Sequence record: OP352608 | Length of the DNA stretch: 64,000 nt | Reading direction: 5' to 3' (one strand) | Origin: Escherichia phage vB_EcoM_SP13 | Shown here: positions 44,384-53,852 of the stretch, one piece after another | How positions within the stretch are numbered: position 1 is the first letter of the stretch | Layout of the letters: each line of letters starts with the position of its first letter | Notes under the pieces: model-generated | Told to the model about the DNA's origin: nothing | Databases searched by the model: none | The model's input: the letters and a program-made list of their open reading frames with translations, nothing else | Program-made: the position numbers and the translations under genes

Positions 44384-44802
44384 GACAATTCCTCTAAATA
44401 CTTGATGATGTGATGAATAGTTCCCTTCACGATTATCTCACGTTGAACGTCTGCAGTATTATAACGCTTTAATTCAATAGAAGGGTGGACTAAATAAAAC
44501 ATCTTCTCAGAATCAACCTTAAGCAGAACAAATGATGGGTATTTCCAATCATTCCACGAAGAAAGAAAGCTGCATTGGCCTTTCTCAAATGCATTTCTGA
44601 AAGGTGCAGTGGTGGCCCTTGCAGGCCACGATTCAAAGAACTTCATTTCAAGCCAAAAGCCGCGCCCTTTCCGGTTGGTGCCGATTACGTCCGGCACGCC
44701 ATCACCAGTCATCGACTCGATTCGTTGAAGCTTCAATACCGATTCTGAATGCTTCTTCAAAGGCACGAATATGTATTTCTGCTCACGGTTATTTGTTGCC
44801 AT
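44380..44802 (-). CDS. VRR-NUC-type PD-(D/E)xK nuclease
   Basis: GVPDVIG ... FWLEMKF fits the PD ... E-x-K signature; typical partner of SNF2 helicases in phages. Confidence 0.6.
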   Translation of the reverse strand: MATNNREQKYIFVPLKKHSESVLKLQRIESMTGDGVPDVIGTNRKGRGFWLEMKFFESWPARATTAPFRNAFEKGQCSFLSSWNDWKYPSFVLLKVDSEKMFYLVHPSIELKRYNTADVQREIIVKGTIHHIIKYLEELS

Positions 44803-47686
44803 CTGGATACACCTGTTTGATCACGTCAACGATGAACATGTCAATGCCTTCAAGCTTACGACCTTTCATCAGGAAGAATGCGCCGTTCCCGACGTTTTCA
44901 GCGATGTACTTCCCGTACTTCTGGAATTTCTCTGGACGAATCCTGAAGCGCATTGGCGAGTCGGTCGAGTCATCCTTGCACATAAGGTCGATGAACTGAG
45001 TCTCAAGCTTGTTCCCGTACTGGTCAAACTCTGCGTAGCGGCCATCAGCTTGAAGACCCTTTTTAAGCTTGCCGTGCTTTGTATAGATGCCGCGCTCAAG
45101 TCGTTTACGGATGCGTGTTGCTTCGTTCTCGTCCGCAAGCACTTTCTTTGTCAACTTGCCGATTACTATTGCGCGCTCGTCATCACCGACTTCCTTCATC
45201 TGGCGTATTGAAGCGCCGGACGTCACGCCAATCAGATAAGGGTCATTATATGCCCATCCGAACTTTGTGTGCATCTCTGTCAGGTCGCCATATTTAACTT
45301 CAGCATTGGCCAATGCATCCTTCTGCTTTTGCGTTAAGGTTCCGGCTTCACGCGCTTCGATATATTTCATCGCCTTCACCATGCCGTACCCTTTCGCGTT
45401 CATGATGCCGCCGATTAGCTTTCCGTTCGCGATGGTCCAGTTCATTGAAGAGTGATCAGGGTCGATTGGCACATAATCCACGCCTTCCTTCGCAAGTTCA
45501 CGTAATATCGCAATCGTCTGGTCTTCGTCCTTAGCAGCGCGTAAGCAGGCTGCGGCAAATTCCAACGGGTAGTGTCGCTTAAGCCACAAGGTCCAGTAGG
45601 TCACGACCGCGTATGACACGGAGTGTGACTTGTTAAAGCCCCATGACCCGAACGTGGCCATCGCTTGCCAAAGCTTTCTTGCATCCGCTTCCGGTACGCC
45701 ATTATTTATTGCGCCTGCAACAAAGTCCTCTCCAAGCTTGTTAAAGTATTCTTCACCCTTACGGCCTGACATTGCCTTACGTACAGCGGATGTTTTCGCC
45801 CAGTCGAATGAACCAATCTCTTTAACCACGGCCATGATTTGCTCTTGGTAAAGAAACACGCCGTAAGTCTCTTTTAGGTACGGCTCAATCTGCGGCACGT
45901 CGTACTCAATCGGCGCACGCCCTGCCGCGCGTTCAATGTATTTCTGGGCCATACCGGATGACAACGGGCCAGGTCGACCCAAAGCCGTCAGGTTGTCGAT
46001 TTTGTTAAAGTTATCGACGTGCACAAAGTTTGTTACTGAGCGTACAGCGTCGCCTTCAAACTGGAAGATGCCTGACATCTTGTTTTCGTTAAGAATGTCA
46101 AGGACGCTTTGATCATCAAGCTTGATGCCGTAGAGCGTTTCAGCATCAATAACGCCTGTATCAGAAATAATTCCGAGAGTACGAAGGCCCAACGCATCAA
46201 GCTTCAAAAGGTTAAGGTATTCGCTGTCAGGCTTATCAATTTGTGCAATCCCTTCTGCAGTTACAGTACAGTAATCAGAGATTGGGTCATTACACACAAT
46301 GATTCCCGCTGCGTGAACACCTGTGTGGGACGGGTGAATCTCAAGGTCGCCCATGCAACGCGCGGCATCAGGATATTTGGCCACGAACTCTTGACCCGTG
46401 GTTGTTGTTGCAAAGGTATCCTCCAGGCCGTGACCATAACGGGCGTCACCGGATGAGTATTCAAGCAGTGCGTTTTTAATGTTGGCCGTTTCGTGGTATC
46501 CAATGTTGAACTTCTTACCAACCTGCGCCATTACTGAGTTGGCCTTAAGCGTGTTGATGTTGCCAAGCTTTGCAACGTTCATTTCGCCGTATTTCTCTTT
46601 AAGGTAATCAAACACCATGTAGCGTTTGGTATCTTCAAAGTCGATGTCGATGTCAGGAAGGTCGGCGCGGCTTACGTCGATGAATCGGGCAAACAGCAGC
46701 TTATACGGGATTGGGTCCACTTCCGTGATGCCAAGGCAATAGCAAACAAGTGAACCAGCCGATGAGCCGCGAGCAGGACCGACGAGCATTTTTGTTTTTG
46801 CGAATCGTACAAGGTCCGCTACTACCAGAAAGTATGAGTCGAAATCTTTCAGCTGAATCTGGTGAATTTCTTCGTTGAAGCGGTCCTCATATTCCTGAGT
46901 CCATTCTTTGATGTGACCTGCTTTGAGACGGTACTCCATCCCCTCACGCGCAAGCTTTACCATATCACCAGCAAGGTGAATAATCGGTGCCTTGCGTAAT
47001 TTCAGGTCAAGTCCGACTATGCCGTTTGCTATGTCAACAGCATTGGCCGTTGCCTGATTCAGCTCATCTTCCGTCAAGATGCCTTTAAGCTGTTTGCGCA
47101 AGTCTTCCGCGTCAACGATGCAGTGCGGCTTGACCGTGTCGCGCACTTCCCAAGCATAAGCAAAGTCAACGTGCTCAGGTGAAGGCATGTGGTTGTATCC
47201 GGTTAAAACCAGCGGCCTTCCGTTGCTGCGGTGAGCCAACACCTGGCGCTTAGCCAAAAGGAACGATGATGGGTTGACGTCTATATAATCGTAGTCCTCT
47301 GGCCGCAGCAACTCCACGGCACCGCCACAGAATTTAACGACGCCATCGAGCGCACCGAACTCTGCACGGGTAAGCCCGCCGCGCTGCGTTGAAAGTGTTG
47401 TAGCGTTGTAAAAAGATTTTAAGTCAAGGGCCAATATCCAAGCCTTCGGTTTGAATCCCTTTTTCGGGTCCGCATCAGGGTCGATGATTGGAATCTCCAT
47501 CCCAAACATAGGCTTAATATCATTTTTCTGGCATTCCTTTTCCCAGCGAACGTGACCCCATGTATTGTTATCAACTAATGCCGCGACTTCGCAGCCCAAC
47601 TCTTTGAGCCGTGCTATAATTTCAGGATGCCGTCCATAAACTTCTTTGAACGTGTAACCGCTGCGAACTCTCAATTGTGGAAACAT
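44789..47686 (-). CDS. DNA polymerase III alpha-like (DnaE/C-family) replicative polymerase
   Basis: 965 aa; catalytic ADLPDIDIDFE segment matching the DnaE PDxDxDF active site; N-terminal PHP-like domain with degenerate histidines (QLRVRSGYTF). Confidence 0.85.
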   Translation of the reverse strand: MFPQLRVRSGYTFKEVYGRHPEIIARLKELGCEVAALVDNNTWGHVRWEKECQKNDIKPMFGMEIPIIDPDADPKKGFKPKAWILALDLKSFYNATTLSTQRGGLTRAEFGALDGVVKFCGGAVELLRPEDYDYIDVNPSSFLLAKRQVLAHRSNGRPLVLTGYNHMPSPEHVDFAYAWEVRDTVKPHCIVDAEDLRKQLKGILTEDELNQATANAVDIANGIVGLDLKLRKAPIIHLAGDMVKLAREGMEYRLKAGHIKEWTQEYEDRFNEEIHQIQLKDFDSYFLVVADLVRFAKTKMLVGPARGSSAGSLVCYCLGITEVDPIPYKLLFARFIDVSRADLPDIDIDFEDTKRYMVFDYLKEKYGEMNVAKLGNINTLKANSVMAQVGKKFNIGYHETANIKNALLEYSSGDARYGHGLEDTFATTTTGQEFVAKYPDAARCMGDLEIHPSHTGVHAAGIIVCNDPISDYCTVTAEGIAQIDKPDSEYLNLLKLDALGLRTLGIISDTGVIDAETLYGIKLDDQSVLDILNENKMSGIFQFEGDAVRSVTNFVHVDNFNKIDNLTALGRPGPLSSGMAQKYIERAAGRAPIEYDVPQIEPYLKETYGVFLYQEQIMAVVKEIGSFDWAKTSAVRKAMSGRKGEEYFNKLGEDFVAGAINNGVPEADARKLWQAMATFGSWGFNKSHSVSYAVVTYWTLWLKRHYPLEFAAACLRAAKDEDQTIAILRELAKEGVDYVPIDPDHSSMNWTIANGKLIGGIMNAKGYGMVKAMKYIEAREAGTLTQKQKDALANAEVKYGDLTEMHTKFGWAYNDPYLIGVTSGASIRQMKEVGDDERAIVIGKLTKKVLADENEATRIRKRLERGIYTKHGKLKKGLQADGRYAEFDQYGNKLETQFIDLMCKDDSTDSPMRFRIRPEKFQKYGKYIAENVGNGAFFLMKGRKLEGIDMFIVDVIKQVYPDGNK

Positions 47687-48228
47687 TATTTACTCCAGAT
47701 GTCATATACGCCAATTTGTTGGCAGACTTTGTGCAGTAATATTACGTCGTCTAATGCACGGTGCTTCTGTTCATATTTTCCGAAATATAATTCATACAAC
47801 TCTTGAAGCTTAACTCTTCGGCCAAAAATAGGCAAGGTTTGCTCAACTGTACATATGTTTATTTCTGGAAAATTAACATCATCAAGCGTAAGTCCTTCGC
47901 GCTGTAGTGCATAATCAAGAATGTTTTTATCGAACGCATGGTTGTGCGCGATAGTTGCATCAGTCTTCTTGAAGATTTCTTTTAGCTGCGGGACGAAATT
48001 GATGAACGGTGGATTGCACTCAAGGTCTTCATTTGTTAATCCGGTAATCTTTGTGATGATTTCTTCGATCACAATTTCAGGATTAATTATGAATTCAAAA
48101 GTTTCAAGAATCTCTTTGCCGTCTGTCAACAGACCTGCAAATTCAATAGGGCGCGGCTGCATCCCAAGCGGCGCTTTCGGGTGCACTGTCAATCCGGTTG
48201 TTTCGAAGTCATAAGGGAGAAATAACAC
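47686..48228 (-). CDS. DnaQ-like 3'-5' proofreading exonuclease (DEDD family)
   Basis: Exo I YDFETTG, Exo II HNHAFD, Exo III HRALDD; AGGAGG RBS. Confidence 0.85.
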   Translation of the reverse strand: MLFLPYDFETTGLTVHPKAPLGMQPRPIEFAGLLTDGKEILETFEFIINPEIVIEEIITKITGLTNEDLECNPPFINFVPQLKEIFKKTDATIAHNHAFDKNILDYALQREGLTLDDVNFPEINICTVEQTLPIFGRRVKLQELYELYFGKYEQKHRALDDVILLHKVCQQIGVYDIWSK

Positions 48229-48240
48229 ATTAGCCTCCTA

Positions 48241-48268
48241 CAAAAAGGCCGCCCATTAGGACGGCCAC
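48241..48268 (-). terminator. rho-independent terminator closing the flavoenzyme operon
   Basis: GGCCGCCC-atta-GGACGGCC hairpin (one mismatch); TTTTTG on the minus strand after it. Confidence 0.65.
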
Positions 48269-48282
48269 AGATTCACGATTCG

Positions 48283-48834
48283 TTATACAGTGTACGGAGT
48301 ACCGTCTTGATTCAAGCGCACGATAAACTTCAAATCAACGCCGATGATTTCACGCGTATCAAAGATCACATAGTTGTAACGACGTTGACCAGCAATGTTC
48401 GGGTTGGTATGAGAGTCAGTTACAACTTCCTGTGCAACCTGAATACCTTCTTCTTTAAAGAACTTACGCCATTCAGCAAGTTCAGCGGCAGTCACGTGCA
48501 TGCCAAGGTGGCTGACCTGATTGTCATGCGCATCGATATATTCGATGTTTTCGTTAATCCAGTTGCAGCCCATTGTGTAGTCAAGGATTTCAAGCTCAAG
48601 AGGCTTACCAGCGCCGCCATCAGTACCGTTGCCAGCCTGATAGTTGAAGCGCAAGTCAGCTTCATTGGTGCAATCGTCGCGACGACCTTTAAAGTCATCA
48701 GCTTCAAATACGCGACCAGTAGCAACAACATGATCATGGAACCATTCTGTCAGGCCGATTTTAGCCAAGAAATCCTGTGCGCGCTGAGCATCTGGAATTG
48801 ACAGGGCGATTTGTTCAATTTTAAAATGTGGCAT
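48283..48834 (-). CDS. VOC-family (glyoxalase/dioxygenase-like) protein candidate
   Basis: Two beta-alpha-beta-type modules starting IEQIALSIPDAQRAQDFLAKIGL and VSHLGMHVTAAELAEWRKFFKEEG resemble VOC repeats; tentative. Confidence 0.35.
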   Translation of the reverse strand: MPHFKIEQIALSIPDAQRAQDFLAKIGLTEWFHDHVVATGRVFEADDFKGRRDDCTNEADLRFNYQAGNGTDGGAGKPLELEILDYTMGCNWINENIEYIDAHDNQVSHLGMHVTAAELAEWRKFFKEEGIQVAQEVVTDSHTNPNIAGQRRYNYVIFDTREIIGVDLKFIVRLNQDGTPYTV

Positions 48835-48930
48835 TTTGTTTCCTTAATTAAATATTATTGATTAATTACTGCGTTGTCTTCGTCCTGTTTCTTTTCAGGA
48901 GCGGGTGTGACAACTTCAAGTGTTCGTGAT

Positions 48931-49614
48931 TTATTTACCAAATGGAATATCAGTGCCAGACATAAAGCGCCATGCGCCCGTAATTAAGATATGGCGAATG
49001 AAGTCAGCAATTACTTGCGGCTCAGTCTCCAATCCATTCATCAGTGCCTTTTTCTGGTATTCAGCGGCGTATTCAGGAGTCCAGCCGCGAGTCGCGCAAA
49101 CGGCATCTTCAATCTGTTTAGACATGCCAGTGCCGCGCAACTTGTTAGGACTAATAGAGAATACCGTGATGCCGTACTTAGGCGTAAGTTCGTGAGCCAT
49201 CTGCTTGCTGATCATAAGCGCAGCGGCCTTGGATGCATTATAACACAAGCTGGACGTCATAGGAATATGCGCAGCATTTGAAACGATGTTGATCACAAAA
49301 CCTTTGTTTTCGATAAGACCTTTCAGCGCGGCCTGAGTCGTGTTAACGAAAGAGAATGCATTGGTGTGCATAACGCGGTTAAACTCTTCATAGTTTACAT
49401 CTTCAAACCAATTGTTAGAGTTGACACCAGCACAGTTGATCAAGCCTTCAACATCATATGGGCTTAAAATTTCTTTCATCTGTTTAGCATCGCGGACGTC
49501 ATATCCGTATGCTGAATCGATGCCAAGCACGTTATGACCGTAAGCGCCAAGGGTGTCAAAAATAGATTTACCAAGACCGGAATTGGAACCTGTTACAACA
49601 ATTACTTTTTTCAT
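48931..49614 (-). CDS. short-chain dehydrogenase/reductase (classical SDR)
   Basis: Cofactor motif VTGSNSGLGKS (TGxxxGxG), NAAH, catalytic YNASK (YxxxK). Confidence 0.8.
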   Translation of the reverse strand: MKKVIVVTGSNSGLGKSIFDTLGAYGHNVLGIDSAYGYDVRDAKQMKEILSPYDVEGLINCAGVNSNNWFEDVNYEEFNRVMHTNAFSFVNTTQAALKGLIENKGFVINIVSNAAHIPMTSSLCYNASKAAALMISKQMAHELTPKYGITVFSISPNKLRGTGMSKQIEDAVCATRGWTPEYAAEYQKKALMNGLETEPQVIADFIRHILITGAWRFMSGTDIPFGK

Positions 49615-49635
49615 TTATTTATCCTTTTTGGACTT

Positions 49636-49669
49636 CGTTTCGATGAGGTAAATATAACTCATCGAAACG
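49636..49669 (-). promoter_or_regulatory. perfect 12-bp palindrome CGTTTCGATGAG-10 nt-CTCATCGAAACG, copy 2 of the conserved element
   Basis: Read directly; lies between the HAD and SDR genes. Confidence 0.45.
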
Positions 49670-49679
49670 AACAAGTAAA

Positions 49680-50552
49680 CTATTTATTGAAATTAATATT
49701 ATGGGTGTTTACAAGACGTTCACACATGGCGCTATAAACACCATCGTCGTGTATTGAGTCTTCGTGCTTCAGGCCGCTGATTGCGAAGCGTGTAAGCTTG
49801 ACAATCTTAAGCTCGAACAGATGCCACATGTGGTAGTCTTCCGGCGTTTTCAACGTTACGCCATTAGGGAAAAGCACCTGCATAACCTGACCTACCATCA
49901 CAGCGTTATCGCCATAGACAGCGTTGCGCTCACGGAAGGTCGCTGCCATTGCATCAAGAATATCGGCGGCAGTTGCCGGAGATTGTTCAACTTCCACAGC
50001 CTTAGTCTCTTCTTGCCCTGTTGCGCTTGGATCAATTGCTAATTGTTGCACCACTTCACCTGCTTTGCAAAGATTAAATGTAAAAGCGATTTTATTTTGA
50101 GCAACGGAGTTATAATACAATGCTTCATCTTGCATCCGCGCGAGTACGTCTTGTCGGTCGTCGAATACATTGATGATTCGATAATCGCCGTGCCGCAAAG
50201 CGTGCGATAGCCATGCAGATTTCATAATAGTTGATGGACGTTTGTCGCCATAGTCTCTCATCTTGATTGTAAATTCATCAAAAGGGAAAACATTGTCCAG
50301 ACGTTCAAAAGTCACTTGTCTGTATTTTTCTGGCCTTGCAGTCCAATATTCAACCGCCTCACCGCGAAGAGATGCCGACTCTACTGCTGATGCAATGTGA
50401 GGATAGAACTGATCATAACCAATACCGCTGTGATAGTCATCATAGTCTGACAACGGACCTGCCACCTTGATGCGGTCTAAGCGCCAACGGTCATCAAACA
50501 GAGTTCCGTCAAGGTCGAATACGTTTAAGATTTGGTTATTTTTGATACTCAT
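49680..50552 (-). CDS. HAD-superfamily phosphatase
   Basis: Motif I FDLDGTLFDD (DxDGT) and a downstream VFDDRQD (DD) motif; no kinase P-loop. Confidence 0.55.
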   Translation of the reverse strand: MSIKNNQILNVFDLDGTLFDDRWRLDRIKVAGPLSDYDDYHSGIGYDQFYPHIASAVESASLRGEAVEYWTARPEKYRQVTFERLDNVFPFDEFTIKMRDYGDKRPSTIMKSAWLSHALRHGDYRIINVFDDRQDVLARMQDEALYYNSVAQNKIAFTFNLCKAGEVVQQLAIDPSATGQEETKAVEVEQSPATAADILDAMAATFRERNAVYGDNAVMVGQVMQVLFPNGVTLKTPEDYHMWHLFELKIVKLTRFAISGLKHEDSIHDDGVYSAMCERLVNTHNINFNK

Positions 50553-51352
50553 CCTTTTGATACTCCATCTTTGGCAACCGGATTATTGGTGATTGGCATC
50601 GCATCCCAAAACTGGATGCGCAACTCTTCTTGCTGTGCAGTGGTATCCATCCAATCACGATACCAAGGGCAATGGGCCTTGCCATGGCGAGGGAATGCGC
50701 ACTTGCCCATACCGATGCATTGCGGCTGTAGTAAAGGATTAGCCCACGGGTGCACCTTGAGGACTTCCGCTACCATCGCACGGAAAACTTCCTGATACTC
50801 GCCTTGAGTACGCGTGCACAAGCGGTTAGAGGCCATTTGTTGTAGAGTGCGCAAGTTGAACTTTGCCATGATATGCGTTTGCATATTAGAAGGCAACACG
50901 GCACGTGCATCTTGAATCTCTGCGCCAGCCGCGCGAAGTTCTTGGTATAGGGCGTCAATGGTTGCCATTGCATCATCCCATTTCTCTGCCAGTTCAGCAG
51001 CCTTCTCGTCATGACGAGTCCATCCCTTTGGATCATCCTCTGGGTAAGTGAATTTGGCAGGACGAATCGCATCAAACGCTGACGACTCCTGAGCGCGGCT
51101 TGTTCGTTCTTGATATGCACCTGTTCGTGTGCGCACCATCTGATGAGTCATATTCTTTGATACATCAGTGATGTCAAAGATATAGTCAACAAAGTCGAAA
51201 GGTGACTTTATGGTGTCAAGCATGTAGCGCCAGTGCTCTTGCTTCTCTGATTCTGTCATCTCAGAGACTGGCTTACCAGCCATGCGCGTATTCTTTGTTT
51301 CCAGCAGAAGGTCAAGTGCATCTTGGGTGTATCGAATTAATTCAACTTTCAT
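50549..51352 (-). CDS. ThyX-family flavin-dependent thymidylate-synthase-like protein with divergent signature motif
   Basis: SPFDFVDYIF ... RTRTGAYQERTSR aligns by eye to the ThyX HETPFEH ... RHR-x7-S region but with His->Thr and Ser->Thr; downstream QDARAVLPSN ... NLRTL retains ThyX-like segments; Cys/His-rich C-terminal extension. Confidence 0.7.
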   Translation of the reverse strand: MKVELIRYTQDALDLLLETKNTRMAGKPVSEMTESEKQEHWRYMLDTIKSPFDFVDYIFDITDVSKNMTHQMVRTRTGAYQERTSRAQESSAFDAIRPAKFTYPEDDPKGWTRHDEKAAELAEKWDDAMATIDALYQELRAAGAEIQDARAVLPSNMQTHIMAKFNLRTLQQMASNRLCTRTQGEYQEVFRAMVAEVLKVHPWANPLLQPQCIGMGKCAFPRHGKAHCPWYRDWMDTTAQQEELRIQFWDAMPITNNPVAKDGVSKG

Positions 51353-51365
51353 TTTAATTATCCTA

Positions 51366-51812
51366 TTAACGGTAGTTAACTAGTTGCTGATCACCAGAGA
51401 AGGTGCAATGATAAACGAATTGTGCGTTATAAAGCAACTGAAAACTTTTCTTTGGTTCATTATTAGAACTCATTGATGTAAAGATTTCTGCACCAGAACG
51501 GTTTTCACCAATCAGGTTGATAAAGCCGCCAGTTGAACGAGGCTGAACGAAAGTGAAACGTTGCATCCACGGAGTGCGGTTGGCACCTTTCCCTGTGAAT
51601 CCTTGAATCTGAATATTCAGGCCTTCTTGCTCGTTCACACCGATGTAAGTGGTAATTGTTGCGCCAGTCGTTGCTGCAGTCTTGCCGTCCATCGCTTCGC
51701 AATCGTAAACAGCGATTGAATCGGAAGTACGGACAGCGGCTTCAGTCGCTTCCATATACATGGTTCCGAGAATAGCAGTTGCGGCAAGCGCGATTCCAGT
51801 GATTCGTTTCAT
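51366..51812 (-). CDS. exported protein of unknown function (signal peptide)
   Basis: MKRITGIALAATAILGTMYMEATEA signal-peptide-like N-terminus. Confidence 0.55.
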   Translation of the reverse strand: MKRITGIALAATAILGTMYMEATEAAVRTSDSIAVYDCEAMDGKTAATTGATITTYIGVNEQEGLNIQIQGFTGKGANRTPWMQRFTFVQPRSTGGFINLIGENRSGAEIFTSMSSNNEPKKSFQLLYNAQFVYHCTFSGDQQLVNYR

Positions 51813-51832
51813 TTTCGTTTCCTCTATGAGTT

Positions 51833-51869
51833 CTGCTTCAATGATTAAAGTATACGCCCATTGAAGCAG
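51833..51869 (-). promoter_or_regulatory. intercistronic stem-loop (10-bp perfect stem, 17-nt loop)
   Basis: CTGCTTCAAT ... ATTGAAGCAG; no T-tract, so more likely a processing or stability element than a terminator. Confidence 0.3.
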
Positions 51870-51877
51870 AAAGCAAA

Positions 51878-52873
51878 TTATTTATTAGCAATATAAGCAA
51901 ATTTTTGATAGTTATTTGCTTTGATGAGTTTTTCAACTTCAACAAGGTCATGAGCAACGTCATCAAGCAAAATGTTTCGCCAAGTAGCAAAGCGACCGAC
52001 ACTAAATACGTTCAAATCCATGGTCAGCTGTAGGAGTAGAGCGTGTCGCAAGTCTTTCGGAATGTCGACAATCTTGCCATACTTCTGGTCGACCTTTTCA
52101 ACTTCTTCGAGATCGATGTCACTCCATGATAGGCCAAAGGCTGTCAATACTTCGTCAACTTCTGCACGCAACTTAATGTCACGGTAACGAGTAATGCCGC
52201 CAGCGGCTTCAACTGCGGCTTCACTTACGCTAACCAAAGGAATTGTTTCAATGATCAGTGTGTCACCAGTGATTGATGCGCGGTAAGTTCTGACGGAGTA
52301 GTCAGGAAAGTAAATGGTTTGATACAGTGCACACTTGCGCTTAATCTTAAAGCGGTAAACACGAATGTTTGCCTTATCGAATGAGAAATCAATCTTTTGA
52401 TCAATCCCAGCAAGCTTCATCATGACTGGCAGCGGCGACGTGTTGATGATTGGCGTCTCGCTATAGCCGCAAAGAGTATCAACAGGAGTATTAAAGAATA
52501 TGCGGTCACCCAGTTTGTCGACAAGCTGATCATAAAAGTCATCAGGCGCAATATAACGCGTTGCAGTTTTAAGCTTCATGATTGAGCGGCTACCGAATTG
52601 ATTAGTGACCTTCATGGAATACATATTGGCAAGGTTGATTGGGCAATGGTCGTGGTAGTAGTTGCCGCGAAAATACACAGCCTTGTCAACTGTCACGGCC
52701 TTAAAAGGGATTCCGGTAATACGGCTTACTTCTTCGCCGCGAAATCGTAGCAAAGCCTTGTGCTGTGGCGCTCGTTCCCCTGCTTCGTACACAATGGAGT
52801 TCGGGAAGTGACACGCGGTAATAAGTCCTGCCAAACCGCCGCCGATAATCATTACAGGTTGTTTCATGTTCAT
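51878..52873 (-). CDS. FAD/NAD(P)-binding oxidoreductase (UDP-galactopyranose-mutase-like flavoenzyme candidate)
   Basis: N-terminal dinucleotide-binding VMIIGGGLAGL; C-terminal FSVGRFATWRNILLDDVAHD resembles the G-R-x-A-x-Y ... D segment of the UGM/amine-oxidase superfamily; subfamily tentative. Confidence 0.55.
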   Translation of the reverse strand: MNMKQPVMIIGGGLAGLITACHFPNSIVYEAGERAPQHKALLRFRGEEVSRITGIPFKAVTVDKAVYFRGNYYHDHCPINLANMYSMKVTNQFGSRSIMKLKTATRYIAPDDFYDQLVDKLGDRIFFNTPVDTLCGYSETPIINTSPLPVMMKLAGIDQKIDFSFDKANIRVYRFKIKRKCALYQTIYFPDYSVRTYRASITGDTLIIETIPLVSVSEAAVEAAGGITRYRDIKLRAEVDEVLTAFGLSWSDIDLEEVEKVDQKYGKIVDIPKDLRHALLLQLTMDLNVFSVGRFATWRNILLDDVAHDLVEVEKLIKANNYQKFAYIANK

Positions 52874-52897
52874 TTGTCCTTTGTGGGTGATATGAGA

Positions 52898-52926
52898 AGT
52901 ATAATAGCTAAATTATTTTACAGCAA
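52898..52926 (-). promoter_or_regulatory. sigma70-like promoter for the flavoenzyme operon
   Basis: On the minus strand: -35 TTGCTG, 17-nt spacer, -10 TATACT, about 25 nt before the ATG at 52873. Confidence 0.5.
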
Positions 52927-52950
52927 CAAGTCATTTCTATTTAGTACAGA

Positions 52951-52978
52951 CGAAAAAGACCCACAACAAGTGTGGGTC
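52951..52978 (-). terminator. rho-independent terminator after the Lys/Ala/Glu-rich gene
   Basis: GACCCACA-acaag-TGTGGGTC perfect hairpin followed on the minus strand by TTTTTCG. Confidence 0.75.
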
Positions 52979-53006: not shown

Positions 53007-53852
53007 TTATTCCGCTTGATCACCGTCTTCGGCATTGTCGTTGGATTCAACATCGACAAACTCGATGTGGCCCATCTCTTCCAGCTTGCTCAGGTAGGAG
53101 CGAACGGAAGCGCCAAACAGTTGATCTTTAACTTTTTCGCCCAGCTCATCGATAGACTGCGCCACGCCAACTTCGCCTTCTTTGATCGCCGCCAGAACGC
53201 GTCCACGGGTGGAATGCTCTTGCGGCTGGCTCAGGCCATTGCCGGTGTAGATGAAGTGAGTGGCTTTTGCACGACGCTGACCGTTTGCCTTTTTAGCAGC
53301 CTTGCGCTCTGCGATGGCTTTGCGACGTTCTTCAGCTTCTTTCTTACGCTGTTCTTTCTGCTGTTCTGCAGCTTCTTTAGCCGCAATCTTAGCAGCTTCA
53401 CGCTCTGCCTTGCGTTTCGCTTTAGCTTCTTCTTTGGCCTTCTCTTTTTCGGCCTTCGCTGCAGCACGGGCTTGATCACGCTCTGCTTTCTTGGCCGCAG
53501 CCTGCTCAGCTTTCAGGCGCTTGGCTTCTTCTTTAGCCTTTGCCTTTTCGATTTCTTTTGCTGCTTTAGCGGCTTCACGCTCTGCTTTCTTAGCAGCAGC
53601 CTTTTCTGCACGCTCTTTAGCTTTCTTAGCTGCTTCTTCAGCACGCTTCTGCGCCTTCTCATCAGCAGCCTGCTTGCGTTTCAGCGCAGCTTCTTCACGC
53701 TTGGCTTGTTTTTCCTGCTCACGCTTCTGGCGCTTCTCTTCGGCTTCTTTCTTTTTAGCCAGGCGTTTTTCTTCAGCCACGCGACGACGTTCTGCTGCGG
53801 CTGCTTGTTTTTCTTCTTTAGATAATACTTTGATTGCTTCGGCCATATTCAC
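53007..53852 (-). CDS. Lys/Ala/Glu-rich low-complexity protein with a globular C-terminal domain
   Basis: About 200 aa of KAEEAAKKAKERAEK-type repeats (TolA-, histone-H1- or IF2-like composition) followed by an 80-aa non-repetitive tail. Confidence 0.6.
   Translation of the reverse strand: MNMAEAIKVLSKEEKQAAAAERRRVAEEKRLAKKKEAEEKRQKREQEKQAKREEAALKRKQAADEKAQKRAEEAAKKAKERAEKAAAKKAEREAAKAAKEIEKAKAKEEAKRLKAEQAAAKKAERDQARAAAKAEKEKAKEEAKAKRKAEREAAKIAAKEAAEQQKEQRKKEAEERRKAIAERKAAKKANGQRRAKATHFIYTGNGLSQPQEHSTRGRVLAAIKEGEVGVAQSIDELGEKVKDQLFGASVRSYLSKLEEMGHIEFVDVESNDNAEDGDQAE

Follow-up and report, generated by a model that had tools for sequence, protein, structure and literature searches.

Introduction

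Thymidine derivatives with masses of 362 Da (F8) and 390 Da (14-1) have been described in the virion DNA of two Pbunavirus phages (Yee et al., bioRxiv 2025.03.31.646159). According to the same study, these adducts are of the sugar type, are located on thymidine and occur at TG, the DNA of F8 is cut by EcoRI, and no known modification genes are present in Pbunavirus. For the Wifceviruses Bas98-100, the BASEL data comprise efficiencies of plating of 0.27-0.92 on EcoRI and of about 1 on EcoRV, EcoCFT_I and EcoCFT_II, and no plaques on EcoP1; the recognition sites per genome (S2 table) amount to 36-38 for EcoRI and 82-90 for EcoP1. The BASEL authors state that the protection mechanism of the Wifceviruses is not known.

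The phage described here likewise belongs to the genus Wifcevirus. In the window, i.e. the whole analysed stretch of 64,000 nucleotides, a block around an atypical ThyX was found beside the genes for DnaQ and DnaE. With moderate confidence, we consider it most likely that the product of this block is a hypermodified thymidine of a sugar-derived (polyol or pentosyl) type, made via a new biosynthetic route. If this is true, the hypermodified thymidine explains the restriction resistance of this phage group.

Organization of the gene block

The features of the block and its surroundings are compiled in Table 1. The ORF list of the window confirmed six co-directional ORFs on the minus strand, and the motifs DLDGT, TGSNSGLG and YNASK were found as quoted in the sequence-only reading, along with GGGLAG. 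The two terminator hairpins postulated there were recovered as well, the upstream one as GACCCACA-cttgt-TGTGGGTC followed by T5 (52978-52953) and the downstream one as GGCCGTCC-taat-GGGCGGCC followed by T5 (48266-48241). Equivalents of both had already been annotated by others in the phages WFC and Mansfield, and the scan of the region yielded 11 terminator-like sites compared to 9.4 +/- 3.3 in shuffled sequences. The claimed promoter of the block did not hold up to the same extent: it matches 8 of 12 positions, lies below the threshold of the scan and is no better than expected by chance, with 15 promoter-like sites in the region compared to 12.7 +/- 4 in shuffles. The upstream hairpin terminates the preceding gene, which encodes a conserved Lys/Ala/Glu-rich protein; this protein was seen by mass spectrometry in phage preparations. 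Directly after the downstream hairpin follow the dnaQ ribosome-binding site AGGAGG (48239-48234) and its GTG start (48228), leaving no space for a promoter in between. The expression of the replicase therefore needs read-through.

Table 1. Positions of the block, its signals and the adjoining replicase genes in the window
Feature	Position	Strand	Remarks
Upstream intrinsic-terminator hairpin	52953..52978	-	8-bp stem, 5-nt loop, T5; scan and direct reading
sigma70-like promoter of the sequence-only reading	52898..52926	-	TTGCTG-17-TATACT; weak, putative
g1, FAD-type flavoprotein, UGM/PPOX/amine-oxidase fold, 331 aa	51878..52873	-	phrog_4828
g2, 148 aa, N-terminal signal-peptide-like segment (read by eye)	51366..51812	-	
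g3, ThyX-family flavin enzyme, 267 aa	50549..51352	-	Pfam Thy1
g4, whole ORF	49680-50552	-	HAD phosphatase fused to four-helix domain
g4, N-terminal HAD phosphatase, PNKP type, ~aa 1-150	50103..50552	-	PF25109, phrog_4889
g4, C-terminal four-helix bundle, ~aa 191-290	49683..49982	-	highly conserved
g5, classical short-chain dehydrogenase/reductase (SDR), 227 aa	48931..49614	-	adh_short
g6, VOC/glyoxalase-like protein, 183 aa	48283..48834	-	weak Glyoxalase_4
Downstream terminator hairpin	48241..48266	-	8 pairs, 7 GC, then T5; scan and direct reading
DnaQ-like 3'-5' exonuclease	47686-48228	-	context gene; whole DnaQ/DnaE context 44789..48228
DnaE-type polymerase	44789-47686	-	context gene

Conservation of the block

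The description of the block as an autonomous six-gene operon inserted in the replication module has to be revised, since all of the six genes but one keep their synteny with DnaQ-DnaE in a large number of distant phages. In Pantoea, Xanthomonas, Aeromonas and uncultured phages, the genes for the flavoprotein, the variant ThyX, the HAD and four-helix domains, the SDR and the VOC-like protein follow one another as they do here, again next to DnaQ-DnaE. This order (g1-ThyX-HAD-(four-helix)-SDR-VOC-DnaQ-DnaE) was observed in Kylevirus, Carpasinavirus, an Aeromonas phage and uncultured phages of 41-58 kb, and DnaQ and DnaE are the invariant downstream neighbours in every lineage examined. Co-conservation in relatives thus holds for a five-gene set, to which g2 is added as a genus-specific filler. 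Homologues of g2 were found by tblastn in only 28 Wifcevirus records, family searches gave no match, and its slot holds other small ORFs or none in relatives; g2 is a Wifcevirus-specific gene that fills a variable position and probably stands outside the pathway. Altogether, the block belongs to an ancient DnaE/DnaQ replication module of phages, of which it forms the accessory half, conserved and passed on by vertical inheritance.

Partial sets occur in Pbunavirus and in actinophages. In Pbunavirus, g1 (about 40% identity), the HAD-plus-four-helix protein (27-32%) and the variant-ThyX clade (about 49%) occupy the equivalent position beside DnaQ-DnaE, and the SDR and VOC-like genes are lacking. 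In actinophages, an FAD protein, HAD and SDR adjoin DnaE, with or without a VOC protein, four-helix protein or methyltransferase, and two of the three that were examined also have ThyX in the neighbourhood; for the actinophage FAD proteins no homology to g1 was demonstrated beyond the GxGxxG motif. In the phage database, g1, ThyX and HAD were found in 361, 395 and 383 records, nearly record for record (Pseudomonas 292/292/293, Escherichia 26/26/26, Serratia 9/9/9). The genes of g1 and ThyX overlap in Cronobacter phage Ss1, and g1 is also paired with ThyX variants devoid of the Cys motif described below (Ss1, a Rhizobium phage, L013). Since the conserved synteny comprises the replicase and the helicases as well, linkage alone is no proof of a single pathway.

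The encoded proteins

The assumed change in the ThyX signature was verified by alignment to T. maritima ThyX (TM0449, PF02511), whose fold family is matched by g3 over residues 5-203. RHR is replaced by RTR, accompanied by Ser88 to Thr, Tyr91 to Ala, His53 to Ile and H178 to R, and equivalents of His53 and His79 are missing. The signature THQxVR[TQN]R..Y.Q..T.R, compared to the canonical RHR..S..SGRY, is kept across the whole phage clade. In the profile searches, g3 reaches 106.9 bits (1.4e-30) against Pfam Thy1, and its value of 83 for the NCBIfam equivalog TIGR02170 lies below the cutoff of 87.9. The residues Q75, R78, R80, E86, R90, R147, N163, R165 and R174 of TM0449 are retained. Among them, Q75, R78, R80, R90, R147 and R174 belong to the catalytic residues of canonical ThyX, which are mostly kept; g3 may just be a producer of dTMP. 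Adjoining the R174 position, g3 carries a conserved four-Cys motif (RLC ... C-x5-C ... C) in an extra C-terminal extension that TM0449 does not have. It is the sole gene of a thymidylate synthase family annotated in the examined stretches of related genomes.

For g1, the Pfam search gave no family match. The best structural neighbour is UDP-galactopyranose mutase (UGM; Glf; 4dsg, 3hdq, 1i8t), the top neighbours including crystal structures of eukaryotic UGMs with NAD(P)H. Common to UGM and g1 are the FAD Rossmann motif (GxGxxG) and a C-terminal GR[LF]A.[YW][KR], present in g1 as GRFATWRNILLDD; many of the invariant residues of g1 are Arg and Lys. In UGM, the flavin N5 acts as the nucleophile on C1 of the sugar, and in ThyX it does the same on the methylene group; a flavin-N5 iminium adduct is common to both chemistries.

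The HAD part of g4 matches HAD_PNKP (PF25109) with 33.5 bits (cutoff 27.6; 5e-8) and contains the motifs DLDGT, TARP and DDR; a motif check revealed no P-loop kinase in g4. In many phages, the four-helix domain has its own gene (about 98 aa), located after HAD and before SDR, and searches with it gave no functional lead. The compact g5 matches Pfam adh_short (4.5e-31, 108 bits), comprises TGSNSGLG, Ser, YNASK and an Asp33 after beta-strand 2, and has FabG as best PDB relatives (1e-13). The match of g6 to Glyoxalase_4 is below the threshold (2.5e-3), a similar weak match being present in L015 and L016, and the PDB search gave no sequence relative. The alignment of the g6 family showed Q8, E80, E82, H109, H113, H142-T-N144, R151, Y153, Y155, K169 and R173 to be invariant. 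Homologues were seen by mass spectrometry for g5 in the ECML-117 preparation and for g6 in vB_Eco4M-7.

Genome signature at TG

All 19 of the 6-bp palindromes that are absent from the genome of the window are devoid of TG/CA (P = 0.0013). Among the GATC sites present, 100 of 101 are TGATC or GATCA, and TG or CA abuts GAATTC in 15 of 18 and GATATC in 6 of 6 cases; of the 90 EcoP1 sites, 44 lie away from any TG/CA. Kyle (21/21), Gekk3-15 (18/19), Cronobacter Ss1 (16/16) and WFC (63/65) likewise follow the GATC rule. Neither this rule (60/116 in lambda, 84/149 in T5) nor the TG-linked avoidance of palindromes was seen in lambda and T5. The signature tracks the replication module across unrelated morphotypes. 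A pattern specific for TG calls for an enzyme that works on DNA, and no such enzyme can be recognised among the six proteins.

Proposed pathway and alternatives

The sequence-only reading had assumed a tailoring pathway around an atypical ThyX, directed at DNA base hypermodification or at the cell surface. The former is strengthened by the core shared with Pbunavirus, the resistance to restriction-modification (RM) and the TG signature, and the chemistry of the individual steps stays a proposal. The block would represent the small-molecule arm of the DnaE/DnaQ module, with a product that protects the genome from restriction. At C5 of a deoxyuridine or thymidine nucleotide, a methylene unit may be built or activated by the variant ThyX, giving a 5-hmdU-type or exocyclic-methylene intermediate instead of or besides plain dTMP. 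The sugar partner would be handled by the UGM-fold flavoprotein g1, and the HAD phosphatase with its four-helix partner would take the phosphate off a sugar-phosphate donor, e.g. erythrose-4-phosphate or a pentose-5-phosphate. An oxidation, reduction or isomerisation by the SDR and the VOC-like enzyme could further tailor the sugar in Wifcevirus and closer relatives, and the dedicated DnaE/DnaQ replicase, always found with the cluster, would copy the modified DNA. By association, the genes of the block appear to be the best candidates for the sugar-decorated thymine of the Pbunavirus type, and the DNA of the phage described here would itself be modified. According to PMC11074155, vB_Eco4M-7 was synthesised by in vitro assembly, which suggests that the modification is dispensable for viability.

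The retention of most canonical substrate and flavin residues in g3 and its strong Pfam score could also be explained by a plain dTMP synthase, accompanied by unrelated passengers that are linked to it through inheritance of the DnaE module as a unit. The HAD protein would then be a DNA 3'-phosphatase or a nucleotidase for end healing or salvage, in line with its match to the PNKP phosphatase family, and g1, the SDR and the VOC-like protein would be independent auxiliaries. Synteny reaching to DnaQ, DnaE and helicases, which clearly form no single pathway, fits this explanation, and modification or RM resistance could be encoded elsewhere, e.g. by a virion-packaged DNA-binding protein; the conserved Lys/Ala/Glu-rich protein seen in phage preparations is encoded just upstream. 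However, g1, the ThyX clade and HAD co-occur almost one-to-one in 360-395 phage records, two of their genes overlap in Ss1, the ThyX motif changes are clade-wide with a score under the equivalog cutoff, no other candidate genes are at hand for the thymidine adduct of Pbunavirus, and the TG-linked signature follows the module across morphotypes. We therefore regard unrelated passengers as rather unlikely. A redox or cofactor support of ThyX, with ordinary dTMP as product, is improbable. Here g1 would serve the flavin of ThyX as its NAD(P)H-dependent reductase, possibly via a metal site formed by the four Cys, and the SDR a pterin or folate reductase (FolM/PTR1-like). The tight coupling of g1 and ThyX, the missing His53 and His79 equivalents, the conserved Cys motif next to the R174 position, and the NAD(P)H-bound UGM neighbours of g1 are in agreement with this, but g1 is also found beside ThyX variants without the Cys motif, and no FolM or pteridine-reductase model is among the 25 NCBIfam matches listed for g5. 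Moreover, ThyX yields THF, so that DHFR is not required, and the HAD protein, the four-helix domain, the VOC-like protein, the RM resistance and the TG signature are left unexplained. A sugar-nucleotide pathway of UGM-like mutase, SDR epimerase or reductase and phosphatase, directed at a glycan of the host or virion and not at DNA, is very improbable, no support having emerged for the cell-surface modification considered before.

Comparison with known systems

The hypermodified thymidine proposed here resembles in several respects the 5-hmdU pathways of M6, ViI, PaMx11, SP10 and PhiW-14 (Lee et al., NAR 2021), in which an enzyme of a thymidylate synthase family is likewise encoded beside replication genes together with tailoring enzymes, including a flavoenzyme in PaMx11, and in which T is partly replaced and restriction is resisted. 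In contrast, a ThyA-type dUMP hydroxymethylase, a P-loop 5-hmdU DNA kinase and an aGPT-Pplase amino-acid:DNA transferase are employed there and were not found here, and the appended groups are amino acids or polyamines, not sugars. A sugar on a C5-derivatised pyrimidine, a start from a thymidylate synthase family enzyme and protection from restriction are features that the proposal shares with glucosyl-hmC (T4), arabinosyl-5hoC (RB69/DLP3) and base J. Those systems employ recognisable glycosyltransferases and sugar-nucleotide genes on hmC, hoC and hmU, whereas the cluster described here has no detectable glycosyltransferase.

Pbunavirus, a related myophage lineage, has the same replication module and shares the flavoprotein-ThyX-HAD core. 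By our own calculation, 362 Da corresponds to 5-hmdU (258) plus a tetritol (122) minus 18, or alternatively to dT (242) plus erythrose (120), and 390 Da to 5-hmdU (258) plus a pentose (150) minus 18, which is compatible with sugar-type adducts. The adduct at TG in Pbunavirus can be set beside the TG-linked site avoidance of the window genome. Since F8 is cut by EcoRI and the Wifceviruses are EcoRI-resistant in vivo, the specificity or the chemistry must differ between the two lineages, or effects of the flanking sequence matter.

Gene content and borders of the block

The six co-directional genes proposed by the sequence-only reading were recovered as open reading frames exactly where it had placed them, all on the minus strand. 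The 4.7-kb block is 100% identical to that of Escherichia phage F13 (OP745617.1) of the genus Wifcevirus, to which the window was therefore assigned, and the whole of it is kept at 92-97% identity in 27 further records, comprising 25 Escherichia phages, one Shigella phage and one Wifcevirus WFH.

Coordinates of the six genes of the block in the window
Gene	Position	Strand	Length	Assignment
g1	51878-52873	-	331 aa	Flavoprotein
g2	51366-51812	-	148 aa	Signal-peptide-like protein
g3	50549-51352	-	267 aa	ThyX-family protein
g4	49680-50552	-	290 aa	HAD with predicted four-helix domain
g5	48931-49614	-	227 aa	SDR
g6	48283-48834	-	183 aa	VOC-like protein

Both terminator hairpins described at the borders are genuine and strong, and they are annotated also in the Wifcevirus relatives WFC and Mansfield. 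The sigma70-like promoter assigned to the block could not be upheld, since TTGCTG-17-TATACT matches only 8/12 and the region holds just as many promoter-like sites as expected from shuffling. Furthermore, within 48226-48266 the strong terminator 3' of g6 directly abuts the ribosome-binding AGGAGG and GTG start of dnaQ and overlaps this initiation region (AGGAGG-5 nt-GTG), leaving no space for a promoter. We infer that the expression of dnaQ-dnaE depends on read-through, and therefore the block is not transcriptionally autonomous as had been claimed. The overlap of terminator and dnaQ implies a control of the replicase genes by read-through or attenuation. A search with the PADLOC defence models gave zero matches.

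Conservation beside DnaQ-DnaE

The block had also been described as inserted, which does not agree with the finding that homologs of g1, the ThyX clade and the HAD-plus-four-helix protein together adjoin DnaQ-DnaE in very different phages. This set is found in the Pbunavirus phages JG024, F8 and 14-1, in the Cronobacter podophage Ss1 (42 kb), where the g1 and ThyX genes overlap, and in a Rhizobium phage (206 kb). In the phage collection, the three occur in nearly identical records (361, 395 and 383, respectively) with matching counts per host genus. The SDR and VOC genes are missing from Pbunavirus. The full array g1-ThyX-HAD-(four-helix)-SDR-VOC-DnaQ-DnaE was observed in Pantoea phage Kyle, Xanthomonas phage XcP1 and Aeromonas phage Gekk3-15, as well as in Serratia, Luteibacter and Xylella phages and in uncultured phages of 41-58 kb.

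A six-gene set cannot be maintained either, because g2 occurs only in Wifcevirus, in a slot that is filled by other small ORFs in relatives. Between g1 and ThyX, Wifcevirus carries the 148-aa signal-peptide protein, Pbunavirus five small ORFs and Kyle two unrelated ORFs; XcP1 and Gekk3-15 carry none. Among the relatives compared (L001, L002, L006 and L017, including Mansfield and F8), this slot appears as a hot spot of variable small genes. Mansfield additionally shows an annotated 71-aa ORF between the VOC and SDR genes (L001 4615-4830), at a position where F13 has a 96-nt gap (48835-48930).

In actinophages, related gene sets were found beside DnaE. Microbacterium phage Sparcetus (L005) encodes an FAD protein, a HAD protein, an SDR (35% identity), a VOC protein (33%) and a four-helix protein (49%), with a glycosyltransferase directly after DnaE. 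Gordonia phage Ranch (L011) and Mycobacterium phage WaldoWhy (L012) comprise an FAD protein, HAD, a methyltransferase, SDR, DnaE and ThyX; in Ranch, a MazG-like gene lies close to the cluster. DnaE-type actinophages with such a parallel FAD-HAD-SDR cluster may be modified, too. A MazG-like pyrophosphatase is also conserved in the replication arm of Wifcevirus and Pbunavirus, where it adjoins DNA ligase further down the arm (WFC gp056, L007 9832-10455; F8 gp049, L019 37163-37717), and in another locus (L013) a dCMP deaminase is located nearby.

Encoded proteins

The product of g1 had been read as an FAD oxidoreductase with a UGM-like C-terminal segment. A confident prediction (pLDDT 88.9) gives it the two-domain FAD fold that UGM has in common with protoporphyrinogen oxidase and amine oxidases, the N-terminus IIGGGLAG comprises the FAD-binding Rossmann motif GxGxxG expected of a UGM, and the C-terminal GR..Y/W motif is present (GRFATWRNILLDD compared to GRLAEYKYYDMHQ in Glf), visible as GRFATW..LLDD. 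These parts of the assignment stand, while membership in the UGM family does not: a close resemblance to solved UGMs, in structure and in sequence, was looked for and not found. Since Foldseek cannot separate the UGM, protoporphyrinogen oxidase and amine oxidase families for g1, and the alignment of its profile with E. coli Glf is confined to GxGxxG, the term "UGM-like" is a description of the fold and not of membership. The profile search gave no Pfam match for g1 or g2. In PHROGs, g1 falls into phrog_4828, which has no assigned function there. The family is large (1910 matches; 1134 clusters at 50% identity), and Arg and Lys are abundant among its invariant residues. For the FAD proteins of the actinophages (Sparcetus gp55, Ranch gp69, WaldoWhy gp64), homology to g1 was not established, as hhalign aligns GxGxxG alone and a local iterative HMM search gave no link; a C-terminal GR[FY].xW motif is common to both by eye only.

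The assignment of g3 to the ThyX family with an altered signature was confirmed. Residues 5-203 match Pfam Thy1 (PF02511) with 106.9 bits (1.4e-30, cutoff 24.8), and the score for the NCBIfam equivalog TIGR02170 lies just below its cutoff (83.0 bits vs 87.9). The signature RHR-x7-S followed by xRY is replaced by RTRTGAYQERTSRA, with RTR for RHR (H79 to T), S88 to T, Y91 to A and, in addition, His53 to Ile. As THQxVR[TQN]R, the altered signature is common to the entire phage clade, including one actinophage member. In one ThyX subclade four cysteines are conserved, one in RLC beside the R174 position, two in C-x5-C and the fourth in an extension of the C-terminus. Phages with this motif are Wifcevirus, Pbunavirus, Kyle, XcP1, Gekk3-15, an uncultured phage and the actinophage WaldoWhy (L002, L006, L008, L009, L012, L015); the motif is missing from the ThyX versions of Ss1, the Rhizobium phage and L013. 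These cysteines may bind Zn or Fe-S next to the flavin pocket.

As proposed, g4 is a HAD phosphatase by its sequence. The N-terminal half matches HAD_PNKP (PF25109) with 33.5 bits (5e-8, cutoff 27.6) and contains all HAD motifs I-IV (DLDGT, TARP, Lys and DDR). A kinase P-loop GxxxxGK[ST], as required for a bifunctional PNKP, was found neither in g4 nor in eight homologs. The phosphatase is fused to a further domain (about 100 aa) that shows 55-74% identity to many stand-alone phage proteins and is predicted to be a four-helix bundle, with no informative structural neighbour.

The reading of g5 as a classical SDR holds true as well: the compact protein matches adh_short (PF00106) with 108.3 bits (4.5e-31) and carries TGxxxGxG (TGSNSGLG), the catalytic Ser (TSS segment) and YxxxK (YNASK). 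An identity as FolM/pteridine reductase was dismissed, as the 25 NCBIfam matches listed are all generic FabG or glucose-dehydrogenase models. For g6, the match to Glyoxalase_4 (PF13669) is below threshold (18.5 bits vs 27; 2.5e-3), and the same weak match was obtained for L015 and L016. E82, H109 and H113 are conserved, Gln takes the place of the first His and a fourth Glu was not seen. The protein is VOC-like, has invariant polar residues of its own and lacks a solved relative. PDB sequence and profile searches with g1, g4, g6 and the four-helix domain yielded nothing useful. Homologs of g5 and g6 were present in Wifcevirus preparations analysed by mass spectrometry.

Restriction phenotype and genome signature

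In the BASEL raw data, Wifceviruses show an EOP of 0.27-0.92 on hosts with EcoRI and of about 1 with EcoRV, EcoCFT_I and EcoCFT_II, and no plaques with EcoP1; the S2 table of the BASEL paper gives recognition-site counts of 36-38 for EcoRI and 82-90 for EcoP1 per genome. Site avoidance was rejected as the cause of the EcoRI resistance because the window contains 18 EcoRI sites.

Nineteen of the 64 six-bp palindromes are absent from the window (0-1 copies vs 10-18 expected), and TG/CA is missing from all 19 (hypergeometric P = 0.0013). Palindromes containing TG/CA are not depleted, with a median log2 observed/expected of +0.27 compared to -1.73 for the rest (p = 0.002). The absent ones include the BamHI, KpnI, SacI, XhoI, NheI, SmaI and BglII sites, and XbaI has one copy; CCCGG/CCGGG (CCSGG) is never seen among the 82 CCGG sites, and GCGC is about 2-fold over-represented. 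From the absent palindromes and the missing CCSGG it follows that a heavy RM-driven site avoidance coexists with the presumed modification. In F8, used as positive control, 13 of 14 avoided palindromes lack TG/CA, which is the same direction.

GATC is 2.5-fold depleted in the window (101 sites vs about 250 expected), and 100 of the 101 sites are TGATC and/or GATCA, 49 of them TGATCA. The sole unflanked site lies at 52111, compared to about 50 expected (p = 5e-27). The same TG/CA-flank rule applies to GAATTC (15/18), GACGTC (14/15) and GATATC (6/6). Among the EcoP1 sites, 44/90 have no TG/CA within one base, in agreement with the RM phenotypes. Other module-bearing phages of Dam+ hosts obey the GATC rule, namely WFC (63/65), Kyle (21/21), Gekk3-15 (18/19) and Ss1 (16/16), the last of which holds only the g1-ThyX-HAD core. 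The rule was not seen in lambda (60/116) or T5 (84/149), nor in module-bearing phages of Pseudomonas, Xanthomonas, Rhizobium and actinobacteria, hosts which we take to lack Dam. The TG/CA signature is, as an indirect indication, the outcome expected of a protective modification of T in TG. This signature and the RM resistance in vivo speak indirectly for a thymidine hypermodification of the Pbunavirus type. One possibility for the GATC rule would be a conflict of Dam or MutH with a bulky T adduct.

Interpretation

A TS-family enzyme whose active site is altered, combined with a flavoprotein of the UGM fold and a phosphatase suitable for sugar phosphates, would be expected to yield a sugar-bearing thymidine adduct. 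We consider it rather probable that the products of the block make hypermodified thymidine of the sugar type by a new route. ThyX would provide an activated C5-methylene pyrimidine, the UGM-fold flavoprotein would engage the sugar and the HAD enzyme would take off a sugar phosphate; in lineages similar to Wifcevirus, SDR and VOC-like enzyme would tailor the appendage. Both ThyX and UGM enzymes operate via flavin-N5 iminium adducts. A DNA-acting enzyme that could give the TG specificity was not recognisable. The earlier idea of a tailoring pathway is better grounded now, whereas its wording as an autonomous, inserted block of six genes falls.

In a more detailed version, which is tentative and doubtful as a whole, the ThyX-family protein and the flavoprotein would couple an aldose phosphate (erythrose-4-P or pentose-5-P) by a flavin-N5 iminium to the C5-methylene carbon of a deoxyuridine/thymidine nucleotide, a previously unknown reaction. 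Dephosphorylation by HAD would come next, with tailoring by SDR/VOC or methyltransferase in some lineages, and the polyol- or pentosyl-thymidine product would be placed in DNA by the co-inherited DnaE/DnaQ replicase. The module would be ancient and occur in phages of Actinobacteria as well as of Proteobacteria. Such bases would then be present in many "unmodified" DnaE-type phages, among them the therapeutic Pbunaviruses and the mycobacteriophages of cluster D, and in Dam+ hosts the adduct would force each GATC next to a modified T.

According to the main rival explanation, g3 is a ThyX that makes dTMP in the ordinary way, and the genes next to it are unrelated and merely travel in a replication module inherited as a unit. 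In its favour, g3 keeps most of the ThyX residues for substrate and flavin. We regard this explanation as unlikely. Less likely still are a redox-support role of g1 and the SDR, which appears quite improbable, and a surface-glycan role, which is very improbable.

Another source of RM protection could be a packaged DNA-binding protein. Immediately upstream of the block (53007-53852, minus strand) lies the gene for a Lys/Ala/Glu-rich, Cys-free and basic (pI 9.7) "TolA-like" protein of 281 aa. Its position is conserved in Kyle, JG024, XcP1 and Gekk3-15, it is annotated as structural in JG024, and it was found by mass spectrometry in Wifcevirus preparations.

A sugar-type modification encoded by the block would have several implications. 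In phage therapy against Pseudomonas, Pbunaviruses belong to the phages in widest use. A candidate for the origin of their adduct can now be named, namely the conserved UGM-fold flavoprotein, variant ThyX and HAD-plus-four-helix protein with or without SDR and VOC-like enzyme, and Wifceviruses and several other genera are predicted to be modified, too. This offers a candidate explanation for the unexplained RM resistance of the BASEL Wifceviruses and a sequence-only signature for such phages, consisting of TG/CA-linked palindrome avoidance and GATC sites confined to TGATC/GATCA. If true, this route to hypermodified DNA would be homologous neither to the known kinase/transferase systems nor to the glycosyltransferase ones, and it would represent new flavin chemistry for the ThyX and UGM families.

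Comparison with known systems

Hypermodification of Pbunavirus DNA was first shown in 2025. In F8 and 14-1 DNA, Yee et al. (bioRxiv 2025.03.31.646159) describe new nucleosides derived from thymidine, with masses of 362 and 390 Da, replacing about 1/4 of T, and stress that homologs of known modification genes are missing from Pbunavirus. The literature search retrieved no paper naming the genes behind this adduct, and none with a function for the cluster or the DNA chemistry of a Wifcevirus. With the phages of proven adduct the block shares g1, ThyX and the HAD-plus-four-helix protein, whose genes show synteny in F8, 14-1 and JG024. By our own arithmetic, the masses fit 5-hmdU plus tetritol (258 + 122 - 18 = 362) or dT plus erythrose (242 + 120 = 362), and 5-hmdU plus pentose (258 + 150 - 18 = 390).

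Between F8 (L017) and 14-1 (L018), which differ in their adducts, the HAD-plus-four-helix protein shows 80.8% identity with a repeat-length change in an acidic linker, and the small ORFs 058, 060 and 061 show 78-82%, compared to 96% for the polymerase, 99% for the Dda helicase, 97% for g1 and 94% for ThyX. Although the HAD protein and small ORFs are more divergent than the polymerase, this comparison is not decisive as a pointer to the gene responsible for 362 vs 390 Da. F8 DNA is cleaved by EcoRI, HindIII, XbaI, DraI and BsaI (Yee et al., bioRxiv 2025.03.31.646159). Wifceviruses and F8 differ with respect to EcoRI, which the former resist and F8 does not.

The 5-hmdU system of M6/ViI/PaMx11 employs a P-loop 5-hmdU DNA kinase and an aGPT-Pplase, neither of which is among the cluster proteins by Pfam or PHROG; in WFC, neither appears in the annotation of a 42-kb stretch (30000-72472) that takes in the replication arm, and none of the HAD/PNKP-like proteins has a P-loop. 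While that system relies on a ThyA-family dUMP hydroxymethylase, the only TS-family gene found here is of the ThyX type.
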